The position numbers and the translations under genes were made by a program. DNA of 29,315 nucleotides from a virus, in the UHGV virus genome UHGV-0059448. One strand, 5' to 3'. The notes under the pieces are model-generated. The model did not search any database. It was not told where the DNA came from and worked only from the letters and a program-made list of their open reading frames with translations. This document shows, one piece after another, positions 8,610-18,785 of the stretch; the stretch's first letter is position 1; each line of letters opens with the position of its first letter.

Positions 8610-11126
8610 TTACCTGCGATTGGTCGCATTCCAGATAAGCCCACCGGGCTGGATTGCCCTGGCGATACCATCGTTGACAGATTTGTTAATCACCTGCTGA
8701 TACGCCTTACCCAGCCTGTCTCCGTCGTTTTGCTGCTGTGCGTTACCGGAAGCATTCTCGACCGTCACCGGGGCATATACACTGACACCGAAAGGTGCTG
8801 CAGCCGGGCCTGTACCACCGCCCCCGACATACCCACCCGTGGCATACCCTTTCATCATCCGGTAAAGATTGCCGACGCCGATCCGGCTGGTAGCCTCTTT
8901 GGTGAAAACAAATTCACCACGGTGAACGACACCTGCAGGTTCATATTTCCCGCCTGAACCGGTATAACCGCCACCTGCAAATCCCAGCGCGGTTGTCGCT
9001 GAATCCACCAGGCCTACCATCGCCTGTTTCAGCAGGATCTGTGTCAGCATGGAGAGCGTGGAGCGGGTGAAGTCAGCCCAGTCAGCCTTTCCGCGCGTCA
9101 GCATGTCAGCCATATTTTGCCCGATGCCATCAAACGCACTGGTGGCAGCCGACTTCATCTGGCCATAAGCATCTGAAGCAGAATCAACATAATCTGCCCA
9201 TGCGGATTTGGCTCCGGACTGCCAGTCGTCCCGCAGCTTATCCTGCTCGGCGTAATACGCCTGCAGCGCCTGCAGCTCATTCTGATAACCAGCATCGTTC
9301 TCCGAACCACCACCATTTTTCCAGCCCTGAAGAAGCTGGGCCTCTTCATTGCGACGTTGTGCTGCACGACTGCTCATACCAGCACTTTCCGCAAGGGCTC
9401 GGGTTTTCTCGCCGATCTGCGTGACGTATTTTTGGGACGTATCCTGCAGGCGATTAAGCCGCTCCTGCGCCACTATCTGATCGCCGAGCTTCGCATTCAG
9501 CTCCGCACGGGAAAGCACCTCACTTTTACTGGCCAGCAGGGATTTTTCCTCAGCAGAAAGCGTTCGGGTCTTCGCGGCCTCTTCCAGAACCGTAAAGCGG
9601 GACTGCTGACGCCACAGCTCCTGACGCTGCTGGCTGATGGTGTCATTGATGCTCTTATGCTCCTGCAGGGTGCGCAGCTGTGTCTGTAGCTCCAGCGTCT
9701 GGGCACTGGCCGTATCGGTGGCACGGGCACCTGCGGGGGTTCTGATTGCCGGGGTCTTCTTCGGCTTTTTAAGGGTGTCTTCGTACTCTTTTTTCGCGGC
9801 GGCCAGGTTGATGTTGTAGTCAGCCTGGAGGATCCGCCCCTCTTTCAGAGCCTTATTGAGCTCGCTCTGCCTGGCCGTGTATTTCTCAAGGGCAGTTTGG
9901 GTTTTGGCATAGTTGGCCTGAGCCTGCGCGGCATATTTCTGACGATCGGACTCTGCGACCGCTTCACGGGAAGCATTCTCTTCGTTCGCTTTGGCAATAC
10001 CAGCCTGCTGCTGCGCCATATCCAGCGCAAGCCTGGCCGTTTCACGATCATTCCAGAACCGGGCGCGGGCCTCATCATTCACATAATGATCGCCTTTACG
10101 CAGATTCCAGATTTCATCAGCCTTTTTAAACGCGGCCTGGGCTTTTGCCACCATCTCCTGGGCGGTGTCAGGTCTGCCAATATCAAGTGCAGCATCCCAC
10201 ATCGACTTGAAGGCACGCTTCAGGGAATCCGCTGAAGACTCAATCGTCCCCATATTGTCGCGGATGGCCTTGGTCTGATCGTTGAATCCGGCAGTAGCAG
10301 CCTGATTAGCCGCCTGCAGTGCGCCAGCCTCATCACCGGCACGCTGCAGCTGTGCCACATGGGCAATCTGTTCGGCCGTAACGTTGTGGAACTGCTGAGC
10401 CATCGCGATCAGGCCTGATGTAGGGTCAGTAGTGAGCTTGCCGTATGCGGCTGCGACTTTTTCCACCGGCACGCCGGAGGCATCAGTAAATCGCGCCACC
10501 GCCTGGCTCATTTCATCAAAGCGCGAACTCGCGCCCACCCCCGCGTTGATAAGCTCGCTCAGGGCTTCGCTGGTCTGATTGAACGTCAGCCCCGCTGCCT
10601 GGCCGTTTCGTGCCAGCGCCAACATACGATCGGCAGTCAATCCGGCCGTGTTCCCCGACAGTACCAGCGTTTTGTTGAAGTCAGATAGTGTGGATGAGCC
10701 CTGGTACCAGGCATAGAACAGCGCACCCGTTGCGGCGGACAGCGCACCGATGCCGACCATCAACGGTGAGATCGTACCCAGTAAGGCCCGGAATGTTGGT
10801 ATTATCCCGCCAAAGGAGTCCTTAACCTGACCGCCCTGCTGAAGCAGAATCAGCCAGGGGTTCTGCCCACCCGCCAGCTGCGTGGCCACGTCAGTAAACT
10901 GCGCCGGGAGCATACGCATCGCTGCGTTATACTGACCCACTGAAATACCGGCCTTACGCGCGGCGTTCTCCTGGCGGCTGAAGGACTGCTGGATACGTAA
11001 CGCTTCATCGTTTGCCGTATTGCCGGTCTGTTTTAATTCTTTTTTGACGTAGCTGAGCTGCTCGTTGAATTTTGTCGAGTTAACGTCAAGGTTAACGACC
11101 AGATCACCGACTGCCGTCTGGGCCAT
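8610..11126 (-). CDS. H: tail tape measure protein H
   Basis: 838-aa ORF, ATG at 11126 with AGGAGG SD; long Ala/Gln-rich helical protein with Gly-rich C-terminal region; follows G-T as in lambda. Confidence 0.95.
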   Translation of the reverse strand: MAQTAVGDLVVNLDVNSTKFNEQLSYVKKELKQTGNTANDEALRIQQSFSRQENAARKAGISVGQYNAAMRMLPAQFTDVATQLAGGQNPWLILLQQGGQVKDSFGGIIPTFRALLGTISPLMVGIGALSAATGALFYAWYQGSSTLSDFNKTLVLSGNTAGLTADRMLALARNGQAAGLTFNQTSEALSELINAGVGASSRFDEMSQAVARFTDASGVPVEKVAAAYGKLTTDPTSGLIAMAQQFHNVTAEQIAHVAQLQRAGDEAGALQAANQAATAGFNDQTKAIRDNMGTIESSADSLKRAFKSMWDAALDIGRPDTAQEMVAKAQAAFKKADEIWNLRKGDHYVNDEARARFWNDRETARLALDMAQQQAGIAKANEENASREAVAESDRQKYAAQAQANYAKTQTALEKYTARQSELNKALKEGRILQADYNINLAAAKKEYEDTLKKPKKTPAIRTPAGARATDTASAQTLELQTQLRTLQEHKSINDTISQQRQELWRQQSRFTVLEEAAKTRTLSAEEKSLLASKSEVLSRAELNAKLGDQIVAQERLNRLQDTSQKYVTQIGEKTRALAESAGMSSRAAQRRNEEAQLLQGWKNGGGSENDAGYQNELQALQAYYAEQDKLRDDWQSGAKSAWADYVDSASDAYGQMKSAATSAFDGIGQNMADMLTRGKADWADFTRSTLSMLTQILLKQAMVGLVDSATTALGFAGGGYTGSGGKYEPAGVVHRGEFVFTKEATSRIGVGNLYRMMKGYATGGYVGGGGTGPAAAPFGVSVYAPVTVENASGNAQQQNDGDRLGKAYQQVINKSVNDGIARAIQPGGLIWNATNRR

Positions 11127-11855
11127 AGCGCACGCCTCCTGAAATACCTGCAGCCTTCGCCATCAGCGTATCGTCATCCGGATCATCGATGTCGATGGCT
11201 TCCGGTGCAGAGGAAAGAATGCTGAAACTGTCCGGGGTTAACTCCGGATCGGCAAAAAACAGGGTTGAGATGGTGTAGAGCAAGCCGGAGAAATGTGCGT
11301 CCAGCTGCGCATCATGAAAGTAATTGTCCTGGTAGAAGATTTTCCAGTCGCCGTACTCCGTAGAGGACATGCCAGCAAGCATGGCACGCCAGTCCGGGCG
11401 ACCGAACTCACGCGCCAGTTTCATGGCAAATTTCAGCTCACTGGCGAGGACTTTTCCGCAGTAACGGGTTCAGCGGGATCATTACGTTCTTCACCGGATG
11501 AAGTCGGTTCTTCAATGACAGGCGCAATCATCCCGGACAGGAGTTTCACCTTATATTCCGCTTCGGCAACCAGTTCGGTCGGCCATGACTGCATGACCTC
11601 ATCCTGAATCTTTGCCACTTCCGCCGCCGCATTTTCTCCCTGGGAGCCTTTCAGTTCGTGGCCGTGCCAGAGTGACATCGCCACGAGGAACGCCCCACTT
11701 TTTACGGTGAGGGTGATGGCCGCCTGAAAATCGCCAGCTTCAACTGCCTCCAGCTGCTTCAGGTATTCGAGGTATTCAATACGCTGAAGCGCCGAAAGCT
11801 GGAACAATGTGACGCTGCTGCCGTTGCATTCAAGCAGTTCGCTCTTTAGAAACAT
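11104..11855 (-). CDS. T: tail assembly chaperone G-T fusion (programmed -1 frameshift product)
   Basis: The T reading frame (ORF 11104..11424) is -1 relative to G and stays open across the 3' end of G; putative slip site G GAA AAG at 11457..11451 (lambda uses G GGA AAG). Exact slip position is inferred. Confidence 0.7.
11433..11855 (-). CDS. G: tail assembly chaperone G
   Basis: 140-aa ORF, ATG at 11855 with GGAG SD; acidic C-terminus; position between V and T/H as in lambda. Confidence 0.9.
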   Translation of the reverse strand: MFLKSELLECNGSSVTLFQLSALQRIEYLEYLKQLEAVEAGDFQAAITLTVKSGAFLVAMSLWHGHELKGSQGENAAAEVAKIQDEVMQSWPTELVAEAEYKVKLLSGMIAPVIEEPTSSGEERNDPAEPVTAEKSSPVS

Positions 11856-11891
11856 AATTACTCCGGGGGAACGGGGCTCGCGCCCCGGTTA

Positions 11892-12629
11892 TCAGGAAAC
11901 AGTGACTTTGCAGATCGCCACAAAGTTACCGTCATTGCTCATAACGATGATTTCGACGGTGCCTGCCGCCACGCCGGTGACCGTCAGTGTGTTACCGTTA
12001 GCCGTAACTGTGGCTTTGGCCCGGTCAGCTGACGATACGCGGAAGGATTTATCTGACGCACTGGCCGGAAGAACAGATACAACCAGTTGCACAGTTTTAC
12101 CGACCGCAACAGCTGCAGTGGATTTATCCAGGCTGATCCCCGTGACAGCAATCGGCGCGGCACCACTGTCTTCTGCCAGTGATGGTTTGCCGTTGTTGGT
12201 GATTTTGGCCGTCCGGGTCATGACCTCTTTGGACGTAATGGTTTTACCGAGGCTGCTCACCCAGCCCTTAAACACATCGACAACACCATTTGGGTATTTG
12301 ATTTTATATCCCCTCACGGTGCCCTCATCGAACCAGATCACAAGGTCCTGCTGACCGGAATCTCCCGGCATCCACGCGAGCGTCAGGTTGGTTTCACCGG
12401 CTGATTTCTGCCCCTGCATGGTTGATGTCCAGTCAGCATTCTCATCATCGATGTAGGTATCATCCTCAGATTCGGCGGTCAGTTCGCCGGGCTGCAGGTC
12501 TTTAATCTTTGCCAGGCGCAGCCAGTCAACGTCTGAAAGCGGATTGGCGTATGGATCTCCGGTTCCGGTGTAAACCCAGAGGGTGGTACCAGCACCTTTT
12601 GTTGGTGTCAGCGGGTTTGGTGTGGCCAT
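11892..12629 (-). CDS. V: major tail protein V (with C-terminal Ig-like domain)
   Basis: 245-aa ORF; N-terminus [10 protein letters not shown]...[13 protein letters not shown] and C-terminal Big_2-like segment closely resemble lambda V as recalled. Confidence 0.95.
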
Positions 12630-12636
12630 AGGGTCC

Positions 12637-13035
12637 TCACATGTCGTAAGTAATGGAATATTTCAGGTCCGCAGAACTCCACAGCGCCATATCGTCATCG
12701 CGCTGGTAGTCATAGCCCTGCTGAACCATTGTGGTGATAAGGGATTCAAGCCCCGGAACCTCTGCGAGAACCGGATACACTCGCGTCTCCATCCAGTCAT
12801 CCAGCTCAGAATCAGGTACCTGAGCCTCAAGAAAGACTTCGATATGCAGAATGGCCTGCCAGCTGTCGGCGTCCAGTTCTTCCCCGGTGTATTCCGCATC
12901 TGTCAGGTAAACGGCAACAGCGGGAAAATCACCCTCTTCGAGCACTGCAGGTCTGCCGTCAAAATAAATGGCGTCAGTACCAATCGCGCTCTCCAGCGCG
13001 TCAATAATCACCTTGCGAATATCGCTGTGTTTCAT
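12637..13035 (-). CDS. U: tail terminator protein U
   Basis: 132-aa ORF; FDGRPAV...FPAVAVYLT...EYTGEELD motifs as in lambda U; ATG overlaps Z stop. Confidence 0.95.
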
Positions 13036-13586
13036 CGTGTCAGAATTAACCTGAGTTGGTTGGTAAGGGATGCCCGGAGTTCTTTGGGCATATCTGACTC
13101 CATAAGCTTTGGCAGTTCTTCTTTAAACGCCGTAGTTAATGGAGCTGCCAGCGGGATGCTGACCACTTCAATGGGGTAACGGGGTTTTGACGTCCGCCTC
13201 ATGACATGCCAGCGGCCATTTTTAAGCTGCTGGATAAAACCGCCCGGAAAACGGAACGGCCCTATACGCAGAACGCTGTTGGCCCCTTTCTTGTCACGTT
13301 TTCTGCGGGAAAGTCGCACGCTTGCGGTACCGAGTTTAATAGCCGGTAAATTGCCCCGGTTTACACGGATAAGCGCGCGAGGTTTATTGACCGTGGCACG
13401 CTTCACCCTGGCGCGTTGCTTTACCAGTTTTCGCGGTACGCGCGTATCTTTTGATACGACTGCCACGCTGCGGCTGACGGCCCGGTTTGCCACGCGGTTA
13501 ACGGCCTGCGCCGATGCCCGCGGAACAGCCGTTTTGCTGATGCTGTTAAGGTTTTCTATGGCCTGTTCAAGGCCTTTTATGGACAT
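13032..13586 (-). CDS. Z: tail completion protein Z
   Basis: 184-aa ORF; MSIKGLEQAIENL... and FIQQLKNGRWHVM motifs as in lambda Z. Confidence 0.95.
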   Translation of the reverse strand: MSIKGLEQAIENLNSISKTAVPRASAQAVNRVANRAVSRSVAVVSKDTRVPRKLVKQRARVKRATVNKPRALIRVNRGNLPAIKLGTASVRLSRRKRDKKGANSVLRIGPFRFPGGFIQQLKNGRWHVMRRTSKPRYPIEVVSIPLAAPLTTAFKEELPKLMESDMPKELRASLTNQLRLILTR

Positions 13587-13595
13587 ATGCGCTCC

Positions 13596-13949
13596 TTAAC
13601 GGCGACGCGAAGATGCAGGTGGAGAGCCGTTACCCAGACAGATATGACAGGAGCCACAGTCATCCGGACCAATACGTTCAACCCAGAATTGCCGACCGTT
13701 AATCGTCAGCGTGTCCATACGCTGCAGCTGCCTGACAGTGGCGGTTTCCACAAACAGGGTCGGGCTGGTTCCTTCAACACGAATCCCGGCACCGGCATAT
13801 CCGATATTTTCTGGATCATCGAATACACCGACCAGGGTGGCACCTGACAAAGCGCCTGACATCACCTTTGCCTCTGTGCCCATCACACCACGGATAGCGC
13901 TATCAGCTCGCGACATGGCCTCGTCAAAGAGATTATCGAAATCAGCCAT
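13596..13949 (-). CDS. FII: head-tail connector protein FII
   Basis: 117-aa ORF beginning MADFDNLFDEA..., with VFDDPENIGYAGAGIRVEG as in lambda FII. Confidence 0.95.
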   Translation of the reverse strand: MADFDNLFDEAMSRADSAIRGVMGTEAKVMSGALSGATLVGVFDDPENIGYAGAGIRVEGTSPTLFVETATVRQLQRMDTLTINGRQFWVERIGPDDCGSCHICLGNGSPPASSRRR

Positions 13950-13959
13950 GTGGCCCCCT

Positions 13960-14394
13960 TCAGACTTCGAAAGCCAGCCCCTTTGCGATCAAGTCGTCGG
14001 CATCCTGTTCAGATACGCGGATAATCACACCAGGCTCTACGATAGATACCGGCTCGTTACGCGTGGCATGCAGAGCGTCAATATGCAGGGTGGCCAGCGT
14101 TTCTACTGATACCAGGTCACCCGTTGTGGCCGATTCCGTTTTTACTTTTGCCACGTTAGCAACATTGTTGTCGGTGCTGTCGGTGCTGTCGGTGCTGTCG
14201 GTGCTGTCGGTGCTGTCGGAAGCATTCTGCACGCCGTTTTCACCGTCAACTGACCCGGCATTGCCATCCAGTTCCTCTTCAAGCTCAGCAATACGCATCG
14301 TCAGTTCCTGAATGGTGCCGCTGGTACTGACCTCGCGGTTAAGCTGGGTCCCAAGTTCATTCAGGCGGGCGACCAGCTTTTCTTTTTCTGTCAT
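13960..14394 (-). CDS. FI: DNA packaging protein FI
   Basis: ATG at 14394 (MTEKEKLVARLNELGTQLNREV...) with GGAG SD, preferred over the upstream start at 14430; C-terminal LHIDALHATRNEPVSIVEPG resembles lambda FI; contains an in-frame (STD)n repeat. Confidence 0.85.
   Translation of the reverse strand: MTEKEKLVARLNELGTQLNREVSTSGTIQELTMRIAELEEELDGNAGSVDGENGVQNASDSTDSTDSTDSTDSTDNNVANVAKVKTESATTGDLVSVETLATLHIDALHATRNEPVSIVEPGVIIRVSEQDADDLIAKGLAFEV
14170..14214. repeat. 9-bp tandem repeat GTCGGTGCT x5 (plus degenerate flanking copies) inside FI, encoding (Ser-Thr-Asp)n
   Basis: Five perfect head-to-tail copies at 14170..14214 with partial copies at 14164..14169 and 14215..14220; in frame on the minus strand (AGCACCGAC). 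Confidence 0.9.
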
Positions 14395-14439
14395 GGGAAA
14401 TACTCCAGAAAGGTGGCCCGACAGGGCCACTGGGGGAAG

Positions 14440-15465
14440 TTATGCCAGTTTGACGGAGACGAATGCGTCAGGGTCTGGCAGCAGCATCAGCGGAGCTGAC
14501 TGAATCATGGTGAATTCGCGCGCCGGATCCCCCGACTGCACCCAGTTTTTCGGGTAGCGTGTCGAGGCATTGATACCTTCGCGCTGGGCATCAGCATCAA
14601 GAATGCAGCCATAGGTACGCAGGCCACGAGCCTGGGTATTCCCCAGCACCATTGTCAGGTCCGGCAGATAATTCTTTTTGACGTCGTTTTCGACGTACTG
14701 GCCGGAGTACACCACGATGGCCACATCGCCAAACATCCCCTTGTATGAAACAGCCATACCCAGGTCTTTCACGGCAGTTTCCAGCTCAGAGTTAGAACCA
14801 CGACGCGTATCCAGCTTCTTCTCAACAGCCTTGAAGGAACGGAACAGCGCCCAGCCTTTCGGATCGAACACAATGATGTTGACCACACCGCTGGCGTTGA
14901 GCGCGTAGGCTTCAATGTCATCGGTCGGGTCATACGTTTCTTTGTCGCGGGTTGACCATGCAGCCGCACCGGCCTGGACAATGTTGTTACCAGCGCTGCG
15001 GCCCATATCGACTTCAACAGGCTCGAACGCTTCCCCGGTCATGGTGTATTTACCGCTGAGCACCGCCGAAACAGCCTGTTTCTCTTCGACCTGAGCAATC
15101 GCCAGCTCTTCATCCTTCATGTTCTGAAGGATAATGCGGCGACGGCGATAGACCGGGTCAGCGAGATTCTGCGGATCCTCATCCGGCAGGCGGCGGAGAG
15201 TCATCAGTGGGTTAACTTCGTGTTTCGGCTTCACATAACCCGGCGTGAATTCAGAAGTGCTGCCGCCCCGGGAGCGGATCACTTTGCCGGAGACAATCGG
15301 CGAGACGTAAAGCGCCATATTGACCAGGCCAGGAATTTGCGACAGGTAAACCTTCTCTGTACTGAAGGGATAGGTTTCGCGGAAAAAGATACGCAGGAAA
15401 AGCGGATCGAATTTGAGTTTCTTCTCATTGACCGCCAGCAGTTGGGCAGTGGTGTAAACGGACAT
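14440..15465 (-). CDS. E: major capsid protein E
   Basis: 341-aa ORF nearly collinear with lambda E as recalled (MS.YTTAQLLA...KFDPLFLR...YLSQIPGLVNMALYVSPIVSG...). Confidence 0.97.
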   Translation of the reverse strand: MSVYTTAQLLAVNEKKLKFDPLFLRIFFRETYPFSTEKVYLSQIPGLVNMALYVSPIVSGKVIRSRGGSTSEFTPGYVKPKHEVNPLMTLRRLPDEDPQNLADPVYRRRRIILQNMKDEELAIAQVEEKQAVSAVLSGKYTMTGEAFEPVEVDMGRSAGNNIVQAGAAAWSTRDKETYDPTDDIEAYALNASGVVNIIVFDPKGWALFRSFKAVEKKLDTRRGSNSELETAVKDLGMAVSYKGMFGDVAIVVYSGQYVENDVKKNYLPDLTMVLGNTQARGLRTYGCILDADAQREGINASTRYPKNWVQSGDPAREFTMIQSAPLMLLPDPDAFVSVKLA

Positions 15466-15478
15466 AGATTTTTCCCGT

Positions 15479-15503
15479 AAAAAAAGCCGCGCAAGCGGCT
15501 TTT
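15479..15503 (-). terminator. intrinsic terminator-like hairpin between D and E
   Basis: Minus-strand RNA AGCCGC-UUGC-GCGGCU followed by UUUUUUU; lies 30 nt after the D stop and about 15 nt before the E start. Confidence 0.55.
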
Positions 15504-15532
15504 ATGAATGATGATGGTTGTAGAAATGCGGA

Positions 15533-15865
15533 TTAAACGATGCTGATTGCAGTACCGGCGAACGCGTTACGTTTAATGTTGTCGTCGGTGACGGCAGATG
15601 GCCAGAGGACATCTTCAATACGGAAAGAGCCAGATTTGTAATATGCCAGTTCCGCGCTGTTCTGGTCTGCGGTTACAGCCAGGATGCCCATTGCCGCGCC
15701 AGCATGAGCACCATCCCAGACGGTCAGCTTGCCGGAAGTGGCATCCAGCATCAGGGGCGTCATCGCCGGTACTGCTTTCGTCAGTTCACCAGGTGCAAAA
15801 CCGGTATGCGCCGGATCACTGTTCCCGAGGGGCTGATTGTGCGTAAATTGTTCAGTGTTAGACAT
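15533..15865 (-). CDS. D: head decoration protein D
   Basis: 110-aa ORF; [14 protein letters not shown]...AMTPLMLD...FAGTAISIV as in lambda D. Confidence 0.95.
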
Positions 15866-15874
15866 GTTGACCTC

Positions 15875-16282
15875 TTAAACAGGCGTATTTAACAAATCGT
15901 CACCCGCTTCGGCAGAAGCGCTACCTGCCGTTATGGTGCCGGGTGCGGTTTCCATCAGACGATCCAGCGCGGTATCCGTACGCGCCTGAGCACTCAGAGG
16001 AGCCGCGGCAAGGATGCGCTGGGCACTTTCCACCGTCATCCCGGGCGTTTCCGCCAGCGCGCGCGCCTGTGATTCACGCCCTTTCGCCTCTTCACAGTTC
16101 AGGATCCCCATAATGCGACCGTTTTCGGCTGCGACCGCCGCTGCCACCTGGCTGCTGATATCAACAGTTGCGCCCGCTGCAGGGTCAGTAACGACCGCAG
16201 CAGGCACGTCAACGGTGGTCACGGTCTGGTCAGCAGATGCTGCTGGTTGAGTGGTATCTGCGGATGCAGTAGTACCTTTCAT
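15875..16282 (-). CDS. Nu3: capsid scaffolding protein Nu3 (nested in-frame in the 3' part of C)
   Basis: Internal ATG at 16282 preceded by GAGGAGGAAGC Shine-Dalgarno inside the C frame; product begins MKGTTASADTT... and ends with the C C-terminus, as for lambda Nu3. Confidence 0.75.
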   Translation of the reverse strand: MKGTTASADTTQPAASADQTVTTVDVPAAVVTDPAAGATVDISSQVAAAVAAENGRIMGILNCEEAKGRESQARALAETPGMTVESAQRILAAAPLSAQARTDTALDRLMETAPGTITAGSASAEAGDDLLNTPV

Positions 16283-17212
16283 GCTTCCTCCTCGGGAAAT
16301 CATCGTTCGTTTGTTAATTGCATCGCGCATAACGTTCAGCGCATCCATGTTGTTGACCAGCTGCTCCGCCAGGCCGTTGTCAACTGATTCCTGGCCTGAA
16401 AAAACAGCTGCTTCAGTATCAAGAACGGCCTGAACCGACATGCCGGTATAACCCGCCACCTTTTCAGCGAACATCTGCCGGGTAGCGTCGATACGCGCCT
16501 GAAAATCTGCGCGTACCTCTTTGGGTAATTTCTCGTAGGGGTTCCCGTCCACCTTGTGATCGCCGCTGTAAATCAGCGTGACCTCAACGCCGCTGGTTTT
16601 AAGGGCGGCGCCGTAATTGCTGTGGGCCATCATGACCCCGATGGATCCCGTTCTGGCCGTCTGGGTCACAAGCCGACGTGATGCCGCACTGGCAATCAGC
16701 TGGCCAGCGCTGCAGTTCATATCGTTGGCTAACGCCCAGATGGGTTTGATATCCCGCATGCGGGCGATGATGTCCGCACAGTCAAAGGCACCCGCCACCA
16801 TTCCACCTGGCGTATCCATATCCAGAAGAATGCCGTCTACACCCGGATCGCTGATTGCCTGCTGGAGGCGGGCGATGATGCCGTTGTACCCCGTCATCCC
16901 CGAATACGGCTGGAGTGAGCGGGTTTTACTGACCAGCGTCCCGGAAACAGGCAGCACCGCGATACCATCAGTAACCTGGTAGCTTCGCGCTGGTTTTGGG
17001 CCCATGTCCTCATCATCACCAAAGAGAGCCAGCGGTTCAGCCATCTGCTCTGCACCTAGCGTCACGCCCGACACGGTGTCGGTCAGACGGGTGATACCTA
17101 ACTGACCAGCGAGAGCACAAAAGAAAACCCGCGCATAGGCGGGTTCAAGTAAAAGCGGCTCATTGAAGGCCATACTGGCAATGTGCGGGAGATTACGCAG
17201 CTCTGGCGTCAT
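15875..17212 (-). CDS. C: prohead protease C (ClpP/S49-like)
   Basis: ATG at 17212 ([19 protein letters not shown]...) with GAGGAGGGG SD, preferred over the upstream ATG at 17227; DMDTPGGMVAGAFD motif; overlaps the 3' end of B. Confidence 0.95.
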   Translation of the reverse strand: MTPELRNLPHIASMAFNEPLLLEPAYARVFFCALAGQLGITRLTDTVSGVTLGAEQMAEPLALFGDDEDMGPKPARSYQVTDGIAVLPVSGTLVSKTRSLQPYSGMTGYNGIIARLQQAISDPGVDGILLDMDTPGGMVAGAFDCADIIARMRDIKPIWALANDMNCSAGQLIASAASRRLVTQTARTGSIGVMMAHSNYGAALKTSGVEVTLIYSGDHKVDGNPYEKLPKEVRADFQARIDATRQMFAEKVAGYTGMSVQAVLDTEAAVFSGQESVDNGLAEQLVNNMDALNVMRDAINKRTMISRGGSMKGTTASADTTQPAASADQTVTTVDVPAAVVTDPAAGATVDISSQVAAAVAAENGRIMGILNCEEAKGRESQARALAETPGMTVESAQRILAAAPLSAQARTDTALDRLMETAPGTITAGSASAEAGDDLLNTPV

Positions 17213-18785
17213 CGGTCCCCTCCTCATTCGATTTTTTCACTCCAGACTCAAAGGCCGAAGCCGCCCACGCTGGCGGTTTAAGTCCCGCTGCGCGACGCTC
17301 CATCGTTTCGCGAACCTGCTGGGCAAAGATTTCCTGATAATCTTCCCCCCGTTTGGCGCATTCCTTCTCATAGGTGCTCAGCCCAGCCTCAATGAGCATG
17401 ACAGCCTCCTGCACCTCCTTCAGACCGTCAATGGCCATTCTCCCGGAGCCGATCCAGTCTGCATTTCCCCAGGCGCTTCTCGCCTCCTGAAAACTGAATC
17501 GGGCTTTAGACGGTAGTGTCACCACCCGGCGAACAATGGCCTCTTCCAGCCAGCATAAAAACATCTGACAGGCCTGGCGGGAGGCAACAAATTTGCGGCG
17601 CCCCATAAAGTACGCCCAGGACTCGTTAGCACTGGCGCGGGCGGTGGAATAACTCATCTGCGAATAGTTGCGAGAGAGTTGCTCATACGACACACCCAGC
17701 CCTGCAGCAATGTAGCGCAGCAGAGATTGTTCAAACGTCGAATAGCCGTTATCAGTATCCTGCGCTGACTGAAGATTCAGGGAGTCGCCCGGCATCAGAT
17801 GCGGCACCTTCGCGCCGCCGAGACGAACCGGCGCAGCGGTATAGTACGAGGCCATCTCCCCCAGCCAGCCGGTCATCTTGCTTTGCTGCTCTTTACTGTC
17901 TGAGCCGAGAATAAAGTCCATCGCGGTTTGCGTATCCAGCTCACTTTCAATCGTGGCGGCATACATCGCCTTGACAATCGCGCTCTGGAGCTGCGTATTC
18001 TGCAGTGTATCGAGCATTTTCATTTGCTCCATGACGCTGTAAAACACGTTAGCACCGCGTGTCTGCCCATCTTCCAGGGGTTCAAATACGTGGATAAAGG
18101 AAGGCCGCCCGCCTGGCAGCTCACGCGGGATGTAGGTCCACTTCTGCGCCATCCACCCCGGATAGCCATCTTCGCTGACGTAATATCCCAGCGCGGCGCC
18201 ACTGTCATTTGTTCTGACCCCCGCCCGACAGTTTCGCGTGTCTCCGGCGTTATTGGGGTTGCTGATGCGTTTCGGGCTCACCATTTTGAACTGTGTGCGG
18301 AAAAGACGCGTGGAATCACTGTCCCAGGTGGCCTGTGCACATAACTCACCGTTAAACGCATGCATGGATACACCTTCACGGATCATCATGGTGAATGTAC
18401 GCTTACGTTCCGCATCAATGCAGCAGCAATCATCCTCCGCAAATTCTTTCCAGGCCGCCTCAACTTCACGGGAGAACGCCCGGGCCTCTTCCTCTCCAAT
18501 GCCAAGAAAACGCCAGCTGGGCCGATAACTGAGCCGGAAAAACGACCCTACAATGTGGTCCTGATGGAGCTGTACCGCGTTTGCCGCATAGCCGTTATTG
18601 CGGACCAGATCGTCAGCGCGCGCGTTACCACGGGAAAAATTAGGCAATAACGCAGCATCTGCGCTTTCACTCGGTGGATTCCAGGCGCGGAGCTGACCGC
18701 CAAAGCCACCAGCACCGCCATGGTATCCGGCATAATCCCGCAGAGCGGTTTTACCGTCCGGTCCTAACAAAGCAGGTGTTTTCAT
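17193..18785 (-). CDS. B: portal protein B
   Basis: 530-aa ORF nearly collinear with lambda B as recalled (YAGYHGG...GFGGQLR.WNPPSES...). Confidence 0.97.

Follow-up and report, generated by a model that had tools for sequence, protein, structure and literature searches.

Among the closest described systems for the locus analysed here is gpFI of phage lambda, an assembly chaperone that aids the association of the terminase-DNA complex with the prohead. It has been proposed that gpFI works while attached to the gpE lattice, and that it helps to assemble the DNA-terminase-prohead complex (PMC4856287). Two further bodies of work are relevant to a repeat located in such a gene. Tandem repeats are enriched in disordered regions (PMC7230257), and E. 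coli VNTRs with few units were found to mutate slowly during serial passage, at no more than about 4e-5 per generation (PMC3777172).

Here we examine a perfect 9-bp tandem array within an FI gene. The gene lies on the whole stretch of viral DNA that we analysed, 29,315 nucleotides of UHGV genome UHGV-0059448, referred to below as the window. The array has been publicly available since deposition of the N15 genome. In the open-access literature we found no description of it or of its polymorphism, including in searches with 18-nt strings of the doubled unit (part of its rotations, both strands), and the paper on N15 packaging mentions neither FI, gp9 nor repeats (PMC4669245). The features discussed are collected in Table 1.

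Table 1. Coordinates of the FI gene, its predicted parts, its repeat array and the adjacent genes in the window
Feature	Position	Strand	Remarks
Major capsid protein gene (lambda E-like)	14440..15465	-	Directly upstream of FI; PF03864, E=2.5e-64
FI gene (gpFI DNA-packaging chaperone), 144 aa + stop	13960..14394	-	PF14000; ATG at 14394 after GGAG ribosome-binding site
FI N-terminal helical domain, residues 1-46	14257..14394	-	AlphaFold2 helices 3-24 and 26-47; nearly invariant among relatives
Predicted disordered acidic/polar linker, residues 47-91	14122..14256	-	Array at centre; pLDDT <50
Perfect period-9 tandem array, 5.7 copies	14169..14219	-	Coding-strand unit GACAGCACC, equal to GTCGGTGCT on the + strand
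Codons for (Asp-Ser-Thr)5, FI residues 60-74	14173..14217	-	Translation of 13960-14394
FI C-terminal domain, residues 92-144	13963..14121	-	Homologous to capsid-binding domain of lambda gpFI
Head-tail joining gene (lambda FII-like)	13596..13949	-	Directly downstream of FI; PF05354, E=1.7e-15

The FI gene, its linker and the 9-bp array

The ORF that carries the array matches the Pfam family PF14000 (Packaging_FI) over the entire profile (all 131 positions; E=4.2e-54; 183 bits, cut-off 27), and the identical 435-bp gene is called gpFI in four RefSeq genomes. Its start is the ATG at 14394, which is the RefSeq start in the identical gene, and not the GTG at 14430 given in a mechanical list of ORFs (13960-14430). 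The D decoration family was also matched among the neighbouring genes by Pfam, and the E-FI-FII gene order is likewise annotated in the phages mEp237, HK225, N15 and phi80. Judged by these matches, the gene clearly belongs to the gpFI family.

In an AlphaFold2 model built from 25 homologues, residues 47-91 are without secondary structure and have pLDDT <50, while residues 94-143 are modelled as a small strand/helix domain. A phmmer comparison matched residues 90-141 to PDB 2LSM, the C-domain of lambda gpFI (E=2e-9). In the alignment of the 25 homologues, the domains comprising residues 1-44 and 96-144 are almost invariant, and indels are confined to the linker that is centred on the repeat. 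The predicted structure thus has the arrangement typical of gpFI, with two domains joined by a flexible linker and a C-domain homologous to the solved one, and the repeat is placed by the model in the middle of a predicted disordered, acidic tether between the N- and C-domains.

Tandem Repeats Finder reported a single array at this site, with 100% matches, no indels and a score of 102. Read directly, the + strand of the array is T(GTCGGTGCT)5GTCGG, with the five complete units at 14170-14214 preceded by a T and followed by the partial unit GTCGG. In the frame set by the ATG, its product is S59-(DST)5-D75-N76-N77. At 51 nt, the array is the longest perfect tandem in the window when periods of 4-15 are scanned, while no tandem in 200 first-order Markov simulations of the window exceeded 27 nt, the period length included; the array is therefore not a chance feature. 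A second tandem repeat, imperfect, is found at 13543-13582 in the Z-like tail gene (period 21, 2.0 copies, 80% matches).

These results agree with an earlier note on this DNA, which had described five perfect 9-bp copies in the presumed flexible linker of an FI packaging gene. Direct reading and Tandem Repeats Finder both return the five copies, the matches to PF14000 and 2LSM support the naming of the gene, and the flexible linker is recovered as the low-pLDDT, variable segment between the invariant domains. The range of 14164-14220 assigned to the repeat was likewise correct, and corresponds to the codon-aligned stretch S59-N77 of the minus-strand ORF, SDSTDSTDSTDSTDSTDNN. The product had been given as (Ser-Thr-Asp)5, which is right and equals (Asp-Ser-Thr)5 shifted by one residue in register.

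Between the capsid stop and the FI start, we also observed a GC-rich stem-loop on the minus strand (GTGGCCC-GACA-GGGCCAC, 14412-14431). It was missed by a consensus scan because it is without a T tail, and its equivalent is annotated as a rho-independent terminator in the HK225 and N15 records. Such a stem-loop could attenuate FI expression relative to that of the capsid gene.

Copy number among relatives and the tempo of change

A megablast search with the FI gene gave matches in 32 of 5,426 complete E. coli genomes and in the phages mEp237, HK225 and Phi06_2987. The most common allele in the E. coli genomes was an FI gene of 426 bp with four (DST) units (20 genomes), followed by 417 bp with three units (5 genomes), 435 bp with five (4 genomes), 408 bp with two (2 genomes) and 444 bp with six (1 genome). 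Among 19 E. coli loci and the three phages, the length differences consist of whole perfect units at the array site (2-6 copies), and FI outside the array is free of substitutions in 19 of these 22 relatives. The phages mEp237 and HK225 have 2 and 3 copies, respectively. Tandem Repeats Finder gave 5.9 copies in N15 gp9, 3.9 in phi80 FI and 8.9 in FI of Enterobacter phage MStein-2023a, corresponding to 5, 3 and 8 (DST) units, each with a 100% match.

Similar variation was seen in environmental and protein data. Contigs from IMG/VR have 2-6 complete (DST) units, and ten metagenome contigs have 2, 3, 4, 4, 5, 5, 5, 5, 5 and 6 copies. We also looked up synthetic FI alleles with 0-9 units as exact matches in a collection of 15 billion proteins, where the one-unit allele was matched in 10 contigs, the two-unit allele in 169 and the three-unit allele in 630. 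The alleles with 4, 5 and 6 units are in RefSeq and yet were reported absent from this collection, so absence from it is unreliable for FI and the look-up is unusable for allele frequencies. No zero-copy allele was found in this look-up, which spanned 0-9 units in a collection that also misses the 4-6-unit alleles, and none of the alleles surveyed had more than 8 copies.

Overall, copy number ranges from 1 to 8, with all units perfect, across the 32 E. coli genomes, six phage records, IMG/VR, the metagenomes and the protein collection, and the reading frame is intact in every allele examined. The earlier note had proposed that linker length may vary between isolates, and had named an invariant copy number as the outcome that would speak against this. 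Comparison of related prophages showed variation instead, including between prophages that are otherwise identical. Indeed, differences of 1-3 units are found between pairs that have accumulated no more than one substitution over 6.4-49.5 kb.

The two closest comparisons illustrate how the array changes while its surroundings hardly do. Over 49.5 kb, which take in the entire prophage plus 12 kb of chromosomal DNA, strains ECCRA-119 (5 copies) and YZMc10-2 (6 copies) have only three differences, namely the 9-bp unit, a 1-bp indel in a C homopolymer and one SNP. Similarly, ECONIH4 (5 copies) and phage mEp237 (2 copies) have no substitutions in 6405 bp outside the array. The homopolymer is C7 in ECCRA-119 (position 31301 of locus L093) and C8 in YZMc10-2 (position 31310 of locus L094), and a gene annotated as 'phage head spike fiber domain' is one ORF of 1026 bp in YZMc10-2 and is split into ORFs of 696 bp and 369 bp in ECCRA-119. 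The C7/C8 difference may be real, as a frameshift switch, or may be an error of sequencing.

For an estimate of tempo we used a tight core of 14 sequences, which replaced single-linkage clusters at 0.2% divergence that had drawn in recombinant loci. Of the 6405 alignment columns of this group, 24 are variable; its genealogy is star-like and its members have 2, 3, 4 or 5 copies. When the states are placed on the three informative sites, at least seven array events are needed on a genealogy with about 24 substitutions. From these counts the array would mutate at approximately 2x10^3 times the per-site substitution rate, that is, roughly a thousand-fold faster or more, a figure that is good to an order of magnitude only because the genealogies are recombinant and star-like and the sampling is clonal. 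The pair ECCRA-119 and YZMc10-2 taken alone would give a higher rate.

The array is nevertheless not hypermutable in absolute terms. All seven isolates of the 2020S05-013 series have 4 copies, which indicates stability over short periods, and the same count was seen in each of several human isolates that appear to be clonal. This stability among clonal isolates agrees with the slow mutation of few-unit VNTRs observed by others (PMC3777172).

The units themselves are more alike than the genes that contain them. The unit GACAGCACC is identical at the nucleotide level in N15, phi80 and MStein-2023a, whereas the N- and C-domains of FI in these phages are 75-91% nucleotide-identical to those of the window (9-25% diverged). 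Perfect, identical units within genes of such divergence point to concerted evolution. Together, these observations make the array a coding minisatellite (VNTR): units of at least 7 bp (here 5.7 perfect copies of 9 bp) stand head to tail far beyond chance, close relatives are polymorphic for whole units, and the units are homogenised relative to the divergence of their flanks.

More distant FI genes have other repeats at the same site, or none. A sister clade of metagenomic FI genes (approximately 75% protein identity) has a one-base variant of the unit, GGCAGCACC (Gly-Ser-Thr), in 1-5 copies. Some of its arrays are mixed, running from G-type units (5') to D-type units (3'), and a variant unit with Ile is duplicated side by side. 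Again, copy number differs between near-identical sequences: in loci L041 and L046 of this clade, which are separated by a single substitution in 2005 nt, it is 2 and 3, respectively. In other relatives, DSP, DGT or TTD units stand in place of DST, and Enterobacter FI proteins have compound arrays (DSTDIDTDTNIDTDSTD...) and reach 165 aa. At the linker site of the Enterobacter homologues P0074-P0119, known here from protein sequence, we noted higher-order arrays such as the 7-aa IDTDSTD and Asp-Thr dipeptides, in FI proteins of 137-165 aa. Lastly, a repeat-free FI clade (approximately 50% identity) is constant in length, at 137 aa, in Enterobacter sp. ECC-219 and 18 IMG/VR loci, although its linker has many substitutions. 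This constancy indicates that length variation follows the repeat, as a matter of mutational supply, and not only a relaxed constraint on the linker.

With regard to the wider context, the exact prophage of the window was found in none of the 5,426 complete E. coli genomes, the best matches being 95-96% identical over 85-89% of the query (2349-27000). The nearest relatives over 6.4 kb, MB06232 and VREC0761, differ by 56-57 substitutions and have 3 copies. By these comparisons the window is a distinct mosaic of the common N15/mEp237-type late region. When 10960-17394 was compared with the relatives (L004-L022), the mosaicism was sharp: a block around FI is essentially substitution-free, covering about 1 kb (FII-FI) in all relatives and approximately 2 kb including the capsid gene in most, and its flanks (tail genes to the left; D, protease and portal to the right) are 5-12% different, with abrupt boundaries. 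In the tail region we also noted that the gene for tail assembly protein T (11104-11855 of the window, minus strand, and related loci) is labelled 'incomplete / pseudogene' by RefSeq in almost all of the E. coli prophages that we fetched, EC2001 being an exception. The label is most likely a mis-annotation of a lambda-type G-T programmed -1 frameshift. In the window, the end of the G-like ORF reads ...CTGCGGAAAAGTCC....

Explanations for the array and its variation

The explanation that we consider probable is that the array is a near-neutral, slippage-driven coding VNTR in the disordered linker of gpFI. Units would be gained and lost by replication slippage or by misaligned pairing between units, and the same turnover would keep the units homogeneous by concerted evolution. 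That slippage is the source of the changes is suggested by the fact that they involve whole units, and by the variant units that stand duplicated side by side. Hairpin-driven slippage was considered and rejected, as the single-stranded array folds no better than shuffles (-4.1 kcal/mol, z=+1.0); in the absence of a stable hairpin, simple misalignment between units suffices. Because the unit is 9 bp, each change stays in frame and lengthens or shortens the tether by 3 residues. If the tether is disordered, lengths within about 33-54 linker residues would be tolerated and the variation would be near-neutral. Near-neutrality is also what the missing coupling with capsid and terminase alleles (see below) and the viability of phages with 2, 3 and 5 copies suggest. 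Ongoing gain and loss of units with homogenisation would then account for the patterns in the clades with the repeat, with variant units and with no repeat. The bounded range of 1-8 copies could reflect stabilising selection rather than drift. Moreover, the unit is identical in the E. coli prophages and in N15, phi80 and MStein-2023a, for which homogenisation within each lineage is insufficient by itself; exchange between phages by recombination, a preference for certain codons or selection for the sequence itself may also play a part in this identity.

The earlier note had suggested that linker length could tune packaging or capsid interaction. An adaptive explanation of this kind would be that the array acts as a tuning knob, kept because the length of the tether sets the reach of the N-domain of capsid-bound gpFI and thus optimises the recruitment of terminase-DNA for each capsid, terminase and host. 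Since gpFI would, as proposed (PMC4856287), be attached to the gpE lattice when it helps to assemble the DNA-terminase-prohead complex, tether length is a plausible parameter. The persistence of the array locus across the whole FI clade (N15, phi80, HK225, mEp237 and Enterobacter phages), its expansion into complex arrays in Enterobacter, with FI of up to 165 aa, and the bounded copy number without a zero-copy allele among those found would all fit this idea. However, the capsid and terminase pairings do not. One and the same capsid protein, WP_000118198.1, is found alongside FI genes with 2, 3, 4 and 5 copies, identical capsid, portal and terminase proteins occur with 5 and 6 copies (ECCRA-119 and YZMc10-2), and identical 6.4-kb haplotypes have 2 and 5 copies. 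From these sequence comparisons compensatory coupling appears to be absent, which argues against compensatory tuning. Cultured phages furthermore exist with 2 (mEp237), 3 (HK225, phi80) and 5 (N15) copies, and FI clades with no repeat, including lambda-type FI as far as we know its linker, function with a linker of fixed length. The expected effects are also modest, since by polymer scaling the lengthening of a disordered chain from 33 to 54 residues would increase its size by only about 30%. We therefore regard adaptive tuning as unlikely.

Selection could instead act at second order, with the array serving as an evolvability device. Fast and reversible changes in the length of the tether, together with the more elaborate Asp/Thr/Ile arrays of Enterobacter phages, would then re-optimise the initiation of packaging after recombination into new terminase and capsid contexts, or allow evasion of a host factor that recognises FI. 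We hold this to be quite improbable; if it were true, FI would be a rare example of a length-tunable disordered tether in virus assembly.

The identity of the nucleotide unit in phages whose FI domains have diverged by 9-25% might also be taken to mean that the 9-mer matters as DNA or RNA, whether as repeated binding sites or as a structural signal such as a hotspot of recombination, a site for a regulatory protein or a pause in translation, with coding being secondary. Here, sister clades are difficult to reconcile with such a role, as they use other units at the same codon positions (the Gly-Ser-Thr unit GGCAGCACC, and DSP, DGT and TTD). The single-stranded array is without stable structure, as described above, promoter- and terminator-like sites are no more common in our scan than in shuffles and none falls on the array, no Chi sequence was seen within the array by direct reading, and copy number is not conserved. 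A DNA- or RNA-level element is thus very improbable. Finally, repeats are a known source of assembly error (PMC6868369) and some of the genomes are long-read assemblies, but there is a negligible chance that the copy differences are artefacts of assembly or sequencing, given that the array is only 18-80 bp and thus below any read length, that the differences are exact multiples of 9 with all units perfect, that alleles recur across independent projects, countries and collections, and that seven related isolates mutually agree.

The near-neutral VNTR remains our preferred reading, and the evidence as a whole points to an ordinary slippage-prone coding repeat with a tolerated length polymorphism. 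The natural alleles nevertheless constitute a ready allelic series on near-isogenic backgrounds, in which the linker spans approximately 33-54 residues where the array is a simple (DST)n, and FI attains 165 aa where it is complex, as in Enterobacter. With such a series, the importance of tether length for the proposed mechanism of a capsid-bound chaperone could be tested. As the array changes at roughly a thousand-fold the rate of a single nucleotide site, or more, it is also a possible fine-scale marker for the N15/phi80/mEp237-type head module that is widespread in Enterobacteriaceae. Otherwise it is a textbook case of a perfect repeat in a disordered region, with slippage and concerted evolution.

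Comparison with known systems

The FI of the window resembles lambda gpFI (PF14000; 2LSM) in family, in its place between E-like and FII-like genes, and in its layout of an N-terminal helical domain, an acidic disordered linker and a C-domain. It differs from lambda-type FI in that the two are only about 42% identical and in that the clade of the window has the 9-bp array in its linker. To our knowledge, the linker of lambda FI has no tandem repeat. The FI proteins of N15 (gp9), phi80, HK225 and mEp237 belong to the same clade as that of the window (74-100% identity) and carry an identical unit, placed at the same codons. With 5, 3, 3 and 2 (DST) units, respectively, they differ from the window only in copy number and in a few flanking substitutions, and the FI of the window combines an N15-like count of 5 with an mEp237-like FI sequence.

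Bacterial VNTR/MLVA loci, such as those used for typing E. coli O157, likewise change by whole units much faster than by point substitution, and are fairly stable when the arrays have few units (PMC3777172). Unlike these loci, the FI array is located in a mobile prophage gene rather than being a chromosomal marker, and it is short, with 1-8 units. We know of no use of the FI array for typing. Phase-variable contingency loci have slippage at a perfect repeat as their mutational mechanism in common with the reading favoured here. They switch by frameshift or promoter spacing, whereas the FI unit of 9 bp lies inside the ORF and causes neither a frame shift nor on/off switching, the examined alleles being in frame and full length.

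The Ser-Asp stalks of the staphylococcal Clf/Sdr proteins are acidic, hydroxyl-rich spacers of low complexity that are length polymorphic through in-frame repeat changes, and their length has been shown experimentally to matter for ligand display. These stalks are far longer than the FI repeat, extending over tens to hundreds of residues, but by analogy the FI array may be viewed as a spacer of the same kind, acidic and hydroxyl-rich, of variable length, and placed between functional domains.
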